A stretch of 64,000 nt of DNA. Source: Escherichia coli (lineage in GTDB: Bacteria > Pseudomonadota > Gammaproteobacteria > Enterobacterales > Enterobacteriaceae). The stretch lies in NCBI RefSeq assembly GCF_003334765.1, contig NZ_QOWT01000011.1, one strand, 5' to 3'. The position numbers were made by a program, and so were the translations under genes. Shown here piece by piece: positions 22,732-23,859 of this stretch (position 1 is its first letter; each line of letters starts with the position of its first letter). Below the pieces are notes generated by a model. It made no database searches, was not told where the DNA came from, and worked only from the letters and a program-made list of their open reading frames with translations.

Positions 22732-23859
22732 TTAACGGCGTCTATAGCCTTCCTCTAGCACCGCCTGTGTTCGAACGAGTTCATCTGCGAGTCGTTTCTC
22801 ATCAGGTAGTTGCATCTTATATTCGCTTGCCAGAACGGTGTTAGGCAAACCTGCCAGAGCATAATGCGCTTCTCCGGCTCCTTTCTCTGCACAGAGAACC
22901 AGACCGATGGGCGGATTTTCATCCGGTAGCGTCCAGTGCTCTTTGGCGTAGTTGAGATACATATTCATCTGTCCGGCATCGCTATAGCTGAATTTGCCCA
23001 CTTTTAGATCGACGATTAGCAGGCAGCGTAAACGGCGGTGGAAAAACAGCAGATCGACACGAAACCAGTTGTCATCAATGCGTAACCTTCGCTGCCGACC
23101 AACAAAGGCAAAATCATCCCCAAGTTCCAGCATGAAATCCATCAGGTGGTTGATCAGCGCCTCCTCAAAATCGGATTCTGAATATTCATCTTTCAATTCC
23201 AGAAATTCGAGCACAAAGGGATCGCGTATCGCCTGTTGCGGAAGAATATGCGTCTCGGCAGGAGCGTGTTGTTGCAGCATGGCTGATTTGTCATGTGACA
23301 GTAGTGTCCGCTCATAAAACTGGGTCGCAATTTGCCGCTCTAGCTGGCGAACAGACCAGCCACAGCGGAGCGTCTCTTTTTCATAAAAGCTGCGGGCGTC
23401 AGCGTTTTTAACGGAAAGTAAACGGACGTAGGTGGACCTGGGCAAGGGGAAAGATTTGGCAGACAGCGTCTGCCAAATCTTTGCCGATGGGAATTCTGCA
23501 GACGGTGTCTGCGGAATTCCCAATGGTGTTAATTCGCCAGACATTGTCTGGCGAATTTCAACATGTTGAAAAAAGAGGTAAAAAAGCCTCATTTGGCGTA
23601 AGTTTTTTGCAGAGAACCCACGCTTATACCTTAGACATAAATCCTTTGATAGTCGCTTGATTAGCTGCGCACCATACGCAGCCCTGGCCTCGCCACCTTG
23701 TTCAAATTCGACAATTCGTCGGCCAATTTCCTGGTACGTCGCGGTCATTAACGCGTTAACGCTACGTACCGTTTCCGTCCGGGCGCTATCGACCAGATGA
23801 ATAATACCGTCGTGGATTTGCTGGTAGCCTGCTGTGGTTCCTTCTGAGAGCGATTCCAT
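22732..23859 (-). CDS. yhcG: DUF1016-family (YhcG-like, PD-(D/E)xK nuclease fold) uncharacterised protein containing three in-frame 13-residue tandem repeats
   Basis: 375 aa ORF; residues about 101-139 read EIRQTMSGELTPL / GIPQTPSAEFPSA / KIWQTLSAKSFPL, encoded by three tandem palindromic DNA units at 23453-23557. Confidence 0.8.
   Translation of the reverse strand: MESLSEGTTAGYQQIHDGIIHLVDSARTETVRSVNALMTATYQEIGRRIVEFEQGGEARAAYGAQLIKRLSKDLCLRYKRGFSAKNLRQMRLFYLFFQHVEIRQTMSGELTPLGIPQTPSAEFPSAKIWQTLSAKSFPLPRSTYVRLLSVKNADARSFYEKETLRCGWSVRQLERQIATQFYERTLLSHDKSAMLQQHAPAETHILPQQAIRDPFVLEFLELKDEYSESDFEEALINHLMDFMLELGDDFAFVGRQRRLRIDDNWFRVDLLFFHRRLRCLLIVDLKVGKFSYSDAGQMNMYLNYAKEHWTLPDENPPIGLVLCAEKGAGEAHYALAGLPNTVLASEYKMQLPDEKRLADELVRTQAVLEEGYRRR
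23453..23557. repeat. Three tandem 27-29 bp dyad-symmetric units with a 39 bp period, inside the yhcG coding sequence
   Basis: gatttggcagac-agc-gtctgccaaatc (23453-23479); gaattctgcagac-ggt-gtctgcggaattc (23491-23519); aattcgccagac-att-gtctggcgaatt (23531-23557). Confidence 0.75.

Follow-up and report, generated by a model that had tools for sequence, protein, structure and literature searches.

The window analysed here is a stretch of Escherichia coli DNA 64,000 nucleotides (nt) long, and our subject is a palindrome that occurs three times inside one of its genes, yhcG, whose mRNA sense is the minus strand of the window. Coordinates are positions in the window unless another sequence is named, and labels from L001 to L213 are the names given to loci in this analysis. 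These three palindromes represent tandem copies of one ancient inverted repeat of 25 nt, ATT-NNN-CAGAC / NNN / GTCTG-NNN-AAT, which is translated in frame as part of a predicted disordered loop in DUF1016_N. YhcG has DUF1016_N (PF17761) at residues 19-184 (E = 1.3e-36) and YhcG_C (PF06250) at residues 208-360 (E = 1.6e-56), the second being a PD-(D/E)XK nuclease domain, and its homologues have the same two domains. DUF1016 proteins, with E. coli YhcG as type member, are very common defence-island nucleases, and the palindrome offers a testable lead to their function. Published accounts locate DUF1016 genes at type I restriction loci and on mobile elements, and YhcG itself matches the PADLOC candidate defence system PDC-S02 over residues 9-370 (E = 2.8e-131), a profile match that makes it a candidate only. 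Searching the PDB by sequence with YhcG gave no match; a fold search with the C-domain returned weak likenesses to NucS/EndoMS, Bax1, Can2/Card1 and NucC, which are generic PD-(D/E)XK matches. In the AlphaFold model, residues 97-140 lack secondary structure and have a predicted local distance difference test score (pLDDT) near 50, while the helices on either side score 90 or more, and the peptide of the units is therefore predicted to sit in a permissive, probably disordered loop. The original prediction, made from the letters of the sequence, had put the repeats between the N-terminal region and the rest of the protein; the loop in fact lies inside the Pfam DUF1016_N domain.

On its other points about the array the prediction was sound. 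It had described three in-frame palindromes with a 39-nt period, and these are found at 23453-23479, 23492-23518 and 23531-23557, with start-to-start distances of 39 and 39 nt; the translations it gave, EIRQTMSGELTPL / GIPQTPSAEFPSA / KIWQTLSAKSFPL, are those of the open reading frame (ORF). The core of each unit is 25 nt, made of arms of 11 base pairs (bp) and a 3-nt loop (Table 1), and pairing runs on beyond it. Unit 1 is a perfect 12+3+12 palindrome at 23453-23479 whose stem reaches 18-bp arms, 94% complementary, over 23447-23485; the stem of unit 2 extends to 15 bp over 23488-23522 (GGGAATTC.../...GAATTCCC); unit 3 with 13-bp arms, at 23531-23557, is perfect. The one mismatch of unit 2 is T·G on the plus strand and C·A on the mRNA strand. 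Each unit makes a predicted DNA hairpin of -13 to -16 kcal/mol. Folding of the mRNA, a check the prediction had proposed, gave -69.6 kcal/mol for the 151-nt region that holds the units (z = -10.6), and the other strand gave z = -9.4. The core, CAGACNNNGTCTG, has five copies in the window where 0.03 would be expected, a number that none of 100 shuffles reached. Two of the five are solitary, extragenic copies that had escaped the prediction. The remaining long palindromes in the window, found by a general palindrome scan, are all terminator-like, with A/T runs. No T-run directly follows the hairpin in any of the five copies, on either strand, which rules out a Rho-independent terminator.

Table 1. 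Coordinates of yhcG and of the five copies of the palindrome in the window
Feature	Sequence	Positions	Strand	Description	Hairpin (kcal/mol)
yhcG, host gene		22732..23859	-	375 amino-acid (aa) ORF; called yhcG in E. coli annotation	
Unit 3 on the plus strand, first in the protein (EIRQTMSGE)	ATTCGCCAGACATTGTCTGGCGAAT	23532..23556	-	perfect; 11-bp arms, 3-nt loop	-13.1 (DNA)
Unit 2 (GIPQTPSAE)	ATTCTGCAGACGGTGTCTGCGGAAT	23493..23517	-	one mismatch	-13.4 (DNA)
Unit 1 (KIWQTLSAK)	ATTTGGCAGACAGCGTCTGCCAAAT	23454..23478	-	perfect	-15.7 (DNA)
Solitary extragenic copy	ATTCTGCAGACACTGTCTGCAGAAT	22692..22716	.	perfect; core search and general palindrome scan	-10.8
Solitary extragenic copy	ATTCGCCAGACACAGTCTGGCGAAT	29831..29855	.	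perfect; core search and palindrome scan	-12.1

Constraint on the symmetry of the DNA

The palindrome is not peculiar to E. coli. Nearly all homologues at 36-58% identity have 1-8 copies of a motif like I-x-Q-T-x-S-x-[EKQ] in the same place, and palindromes are found in their DNA: ATTCAGCAACCAGTGGTTGCTGAAT and three others in L004, ATTGGTCAGACGCTATCTGACCAAT in L006, and ATTTGGCCGACACTGTCGGCCAAAT in L005, where a change of Gln to Pro is paired with one of TCT to TCG. We scanned one genome per species, for 100,044 species, with a bare 16-base pattern, ATTNNNCAGACNNNGTCTGNNNAAT, and found at least 120 loci in many bacterial phyla (Bacteroidota, Firmicutes, Actinobacteria, Proteobacteria, Acidobacteria, Verrucomicrobia and Planctomycetes, among others) and in archaea (Methanoperedens, Methanoregula and Woesearchaeota). 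Roughly three quarters of the scan matches listed lie inside DUF1016 ORFs, at positions 102-142 of the hidden Markov model (median 107). The matches listed also include roughly twenty solitary, perfect, intergenic copies and about six asymmetric chance matches in unrelated genes; no in-frame palindrome in another gene family is among them, those outside DUF1016 being intergenic or chance. A scan of viral contigs gave a single locus.

A second sample was selected by protein, from a metagenome scan with peptide patterns remote from the loop, and comprised 79 full-length genes. At least one loop palindrome is present in 78 of the 79, at 12.1 palindromes per kilobase (kb) in the loop against 0.85 per kb elsewhere in the gene, and 104 of 106 palindromes have their centre in one and the same codon phase. 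For more diverse representatives we used a protein-level proxy: a 9-mer fully compatible with a palindrome occurs in the loop of 37 of 55, and 2.2% of loop windows are compatible, against 0.37% elsewhere. From bacteria to archaea, then, the element keeps one position in the gene and one codon phase.

What is conserved at that position is the pairing. Among the matches of the genome scan, 80 of 133 (60%) show complete complementarity of the free arm triplets, against 4.9% with shuffled partners. We then have alignment A4, of 91 distinct units, in which 94.4% of cells pair, a figure inflated because units entered the alignment with 9 or more of their 11 positions paired. Compensatory changes occur in nine of its 12 pairs; 167 cells are double-changed, against 52.6 +/- 7.4 in shuffles (none of 500 reaching 167), and controls with the register slid pair at 23-45%. 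Covariation with complementarity retained is the mark of a base-paired element, and it is what we find. Codons tell the same story from another side. Synonymous sites are fixed (Ser is TCT in 83/90, Gln CAG in 80/80, Lys AAA in 42/42, Glu GAA in 36/36 and Ile ATT in 82/83), and base 2 of x1 finds its complement at the four-fold site of x3 in 62 of 66. Residues covary by the rules of reverse complementation: R goes with G or E, P with A or E, W with A or K, V with A or Q, G with D or Q, and C with G or K. Within the closer clade Ile, Gln, Thr and Ser are strongly conserved, and the units of one gene differ in the sequence of their arms.

Six distant homologues that lack the motif were examined for the palindrome. 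Three have it in perfect form under unrelated peptides: L209, TTCTCGACGCAGCGCGTCGAGAA (FLDAARRE); L212, ATTCGAGACGCGGCGCGTCTCGAAT (IRDAARLES); and L213, ATTCTCTCCACAGTGTGGAGAGAAT (ILSTVWREL). In the other three it has been lost and the genes are intact. The peptide IQQPVVAES of L004 is likewise encoded by a retained palindrome. Residues and synonymous codons thus change in pairs that keep the arms reverse complements of one another; the constraint acts on the symmetry of the DNA, and the peptide, I-x-Q-T-x-S-x-E/K, is its passenger. An ordinary tandem repeat of protein, with its motif kept and its synonymous sites free, is contradicted by the fixed codons and by the unrelated peptides that overlie a palindrome. 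This upholds the central claim of the original prediction, that symmetry is held at the level of nucleic acid and not of protein: distant homologues change the peptide and retain the palindrome. The prediction had said that conserved residues with synonymous changes breaking the palindrome would refute it, and the homologues gave the opposite. Its proposal of a hairpin-forming or dimer-bound element needs dividing. The hairpin survives; a site for a dimeric protein alone is insufficient because the arm positions vary but remain complementary, and pairing or templating between the arms is needed. Here, then, the structure of DNA, and not the protein, dictates encoded residues across a family in bacteria and archaea, and the palindrome becomes a DNA-level marker of DUF1016 genes and their remnants.

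Copy number, breakpoints and solitary copies

Homologues from Salmonella, Citrobacter and Kluyvera have one unit (IEIQQTLSGES), and alleles of E. coli and Pseudocitrobacter have 1, 2 or 3, encoding proteins of 349, 362/370 and 375/382 aa. Since the relatives have a single unit, the founding unit is ancestral and the extra units are a local expansion. Unit 3 aligns with the lone unit of Salmonella and Citrobacter YhcG, and its position is that of the ancestral single unit. The expansion within the gene that the original prediction suggested is thus seen in the alleles. The suspicion that an alignment of homologues would reveal an insertion is right for the extra units; the founding unit is an ancestral feature of DUF1016 family-wide and not an insertion. 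We note also that the 39-nt (13-codon) spacing recurs in many unrelated multi-unit genes of L129-L208 (for example L138, L143, L156, L160, L165, L193, L195, L197, L200 and L207), and that other spacings in this set are 36, 48, 51, 60 and 72 nt.

The copy count that the prediction had asked for came from BLAST, which places the palindrome at a median of two and at most four sites per E. coli genome. Across 5,426 complete genomes of the species, numerous truncated yhcG alleles have their BLAST breakpoint at 23454, the outer edge of unit 1. Two genomes are particularly instructive. In NZ_CP092452, from strain TKEC21-59, 470 bp of foreign DNA stands in place of positions 22674-23453 of the window, with a junction that coincides exactly with the outer edge of the unit 1 palindrome; this strain also lacks the 5.9-kb gltF-yhcADEF segment (23989-29868), whose gltD-side end bears a solitary palindrome. 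In NZ_CP039298 (L003, 4176-4945), IS1 lies within unit 1, after 23475, and 23476-29653 is deleted. Rearrangement breakpoints and extragenic solitary copies occur at the palindrome, and the yhcG palindromes account for the copy-number alleles and the breakpoints at the nan-yhcG-glt locus. At L001 (3531-4000 of NZ_CP092452), and likewise at L002, what gave way to the foreign 470 bp was the last two-thirds of yhcG, on its 3' side, together with the palindrome that lies downstream. The incoming DNA at L001 holds an ORF of 101 aa whose annotation reads 'transposase' and for which NCBIfam gave no match.

The solitary copy nearest to yhcG lies 16 nt past its stop and 19 nt past that of yhcH/nanQ, the two genes being convergent. 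Its translation in the yhcG frame, FQRFRILQTVSAES, looks like the tail end of a DUF1016 N-domain joined to a unit (compare FQRIEILQTLSAE in other alleles), and on that likeness the copy is probably what is left of a second DUF1016 gene, truncated at its palindrome. In allele P0021, where yhcG has no stop codon, the reading frame continues through this copy. The second copy has arms identical to those of unit 3 and lies 16 nt past the gltD stop, 13 nt inside the edge of the gltF-yhcADEF segment. A candidate small ORF, read by eye as GAGG and then ATG at 29859-29861 on the minus strand, directly past the gltD stop, runs across this palindrome (MNSPDCVWRIKLL...).

Copies beside DUF1016 genes are found in other lineages too. 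The most elaborate case is L095, where a 48-nt perfect direct repeat with the palindrome (YVNRICQTLSGKLGN) stands at 1138-1185 and again at 2324-2371 around a whole DUF1016 gene whose own loop has lost it; unrelated genes lie beyond the two repeats, and it looks as though a cassette was inserted, or a stretch duplicated, where a palindrome stood. In L006 a copy follows the stop by 9 nt and matches the unit inside the gene at 88% identity over 34 nt; in L041 the copy lies 16 nt past the stop; L086 has copies upstream and downstream; and L073, L036 and L064 have upstream copies, that of L073 being 93% identical to the loop copy. A flanking copy as a general rule was considered and rejected, since among the 79 protein-selected genes only three loci, all from E. 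coli, have one. We also rejected a common neighbour gene for solitary copies, the neighbours being metH, a sugar dehydrogenase, a histidine kinase, restriction/methylase genes and a recombinase; the recombinase near one such copy is of the tyrosine type. At L011 (4089-4136, Legionellales) and L017 (177-276, Methanoregula), solitary palindromes occur in twos, adjacent or overlapping, and no DUF1016 ORF can be recognised around them; the palindromes seem to have outlasted the gene.

Explanations for the persistence of the palindrome

The explanation we favour, with moderate confidence, is that of a coding palindrome that corrects itself, expands by slippage and is a fragile site, housed in a permissive loop. 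While the DNA is single-stranded, for instance during replication, the arms would pair within one strand, and a change in one arm could be copied to the other by template switching, the process known as quasipalindrome correction. The sequence of the palindrome would then drift while its symmetry stayed perfect. Slippage between neighbouring units would give the 39-nt tandem expansion in E. coli, and fragility of the hairpins would give the breakpoints. Evidence comes from 21 disjoint pairs of related genes, 82-97% identical outside the loop, which show 21 compensated double differences against four that are single-sided. Variable paired columns differ in 17 of 63 cases, much like the unpaired flank (61/168) and the loop sites (19/63). 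Paired sites are therefore not slowed, which fits templated correction, whereas stepwise compensation under selection would slow them; concerted change of the arms at an unslowed rate is what template switching predicts and what the pairs show. Template switching has been proposed before as the means by which perfect inverted repeats are conserved in proteobacteria (Lavi et al. 2018, PMC5941160).

Several observations weigh against this explanation. Templated correction by itself leaves the wide retention of the palindrome without explanation (78/79 in the closer clade and, by the proxy, at least 37/55 diverse representatives). Nor does it account for the fixed geometry of 11-bp arms and a 3-nt loop, for the R-N-Y loop of 86 of the 91 units, or for the outer ATT/AAT, which is kept even under differing peptides; the fixed geometry and the kept ends suggest purifying selection on the hairpin itself. 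Copies beside DUF1016 genes recur in unrelated lineages, which points to a process of copying or recombination tied to the gene. Template switching is read from the patterns of the arms and not from events seen directly, and replacement of whole units by recombination between alleles could mimic concerted change. The inflated pairing percentage of A4 belongs on this side of the balance as well.

The copies beside DUF1016 genes give some weight to a different explanation, in which the hairpin is a selected cis site in DNA, either for the DUF1016 protein or as an att-like recombination site, and serves self-regulation, cassette exchange or mobility. We think this possible but a good deal less probable than not. 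Across bacteria and archaea nothing but the DUF1016 protein is co-conserved with the hairpin, whose geometry and ATT/AAT ends are constant. Copies flank DUF1016 genes in L095, L006, L041, L086, E. coli, L036, L064 and L073, with the downstream ones of L006, L041, L086 and E. coli only 9-33 nt past the stop; truncated genes start or end at the palindrome; and the weak likeness of the C-domain to NucS/EndoMS and Bax1 is a likeness to structure-specific nucleases. Yet flanking copies are rare in the protein-selected sample, three homologues are intact without a palindrome, and the neighbours of solitary copies are heterogeneous. The arms differ between units of one gene, which means that the variable part would not be read as sequence. 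Were the explanation true, the gene might be regulated through its hairpin, have its halves exchanged, or be moved whole as a hairpin-bounded cassette, and the enzyme with its own cis site would be a new class of gene-plus-site unit, a nuclease and a hairpin travelling together across bacteria and archaea.

The other possibilities we regard as less probable still. An action of the hairpins in mRNA, be it ribosome pausing between the halves of the N-domain, decay or processing of the message, or a limit on a toxic nuclease, is improbable, in spite of the very strong RNA folding, the fixed ORF position and codon phase, and the extragenic copies that often lie 8-100 nt past stops, where 3' hairpins stabilise transcripts. 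An mRNA hairpin under selection should tolerate G·U in excess of A·C, and among 39 sense-strand mismatches, a small sample, there are six G·T/T·G, 12 A·C/C·A and 21 of transversion type; G·U pairs are thus not enriched, and this argues against selection on the mRNA. The mismatch of unit 2 in E. coli is itself C·A in the mRNA, untranslated solitary copies are still perfectly symmetric, no hairpin has a U-run, and Rfam covariance models gave no match at E <= 1 over positions 22000-25000 of the window. We give very little credence to a mobile palindromic element (of the type of REP, the repetitive extragenic palindrome; MITE, the miniature inverted-repeat transposable element; or RPE, the Rickettsia palindromic element) that inserted into yhcG and was amplified there. 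Two solitary copies within 7 kb, one with the arms of unit 3, and the intergenic copies of other taxa are what such an element might leave behind, but homologues from different phyla, 36-99% identical, share the codon position of the founding unit, a sign of vertical inheritance along with the gene, the number of places in E. coli genomes is small, and no other family among the matches listed has the palindrome in frame. Just as hard to credit is a protein repeat (I-x-Q-T-x-S-x-E) that is palindromic in its DNA by chance, or a duplex operator of a dimeric host regulator. The conserved Ile, Gln, Thr and Ser of the closer clade favour the former and the 12+3+12 dyad, a typical operator shape, the latter; against them stand the fixed synonymous codons, the covariation of x1 and x3 by reverse-complement rules, the unrelated peptides drawn from the same palindrome and the predicted disorder of the region. 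No single host regulator spans bacteria and archaea, and operator positions that are not contacted would lose their symmetry when they varied.

Comparison with known systems

Quasipalindrome correction by template switching reportedly goes back to Ripley in 1982 and to the Lovett laboratory. The likeness is to the mechanism proposed for the DUF1016 palindrome, in that arm-from-arm copying keeps short inverted repeats perfect over evolutionary time (PMC5941160). That paper concerns mutation hotspots and non-coding repeats within proteobacteria, whereas the DUF1016 palindrome is coding, has a fixed geometry and sits at one codon position across domains of life. The nearest coding parallel is in the mitochondria of Nematomorpha, for which a 2019 report describes perfect inverted repeats inside functional protein-coding genes, with both arms translated (PMC6649704). 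As presented there, protein sequence and DNA symmetry are preserved together, as they are in the yhcG units; the mitochondrial repeats reach 284 bp, occur in large numbers across many genes of a single organelle genome, and fall in conserved regions of proteins. The DUF1016 unit is instead of a single 25-nt type in one family of bacteria and archaea, and it lies in a disordered loop where the protein yields.

More familiar palindromes fit less well. REP sequences and bacterial interspersed mosaic elements (BIMEs) are extragenic and high in copy number, with a GTAG or CGTC tag and an HUH/Y1 transposase, the REP-associated tyrosine transposase (RAYT). They resemble our element in being short hairpin palindromes with a variable, paired stem, in having one linked enzyme gene that is sometimes flanked, and in lying past stops. 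They are ruled out by low copy number, by the location inside an ORF, by ATT...AAT ends without a tag, and by linkage to a PD-(D/E)XK nuclease. The Rickettsia palindromic elements of Ogata et al. (2000) are said to be 100-150 bp long and to occur in many unrelated genes of one genus; they too are palindromic DNA translated in frame as a tolerated extra peptide. The present unit, at 25-39 nt and restricted to a single family in many phyla, is no invader of this type. Integron attC sites are imperfect, 57-141 bp long, with GTTRRRY core sites, extrahelical bases and the IntI integrase. They are also hairpins defined by structure at the 3' end of a gene, and copies like those of L095 flank a single gene; units of 25 nt, nearly perfect and without GTTRRRY, rule them out, and there is no integrase among the neighbouring ORFs in the window.

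In the open-access literature we found no description of a palindrome in DUF1016/YhcG genes, and a literature search with the sequence string returned only unrelated primers and guide RNAs. The antisense RNA G0-10703 near yhcG concerns the 5' region and not the palindromes (PMC7967276). The family therefore offers a natural, replicated system in which to measure how a coding palindrome persists, whether by templated correction of its arms or by selection. In L004 (3142-3464), a metagenomic DUF1016 gene of seven or more units, the 20-aa repeats contain by turns the main palindrome and a second type, CTAAAGACnnnGTCTTTAA (peptide SKD.MSL).

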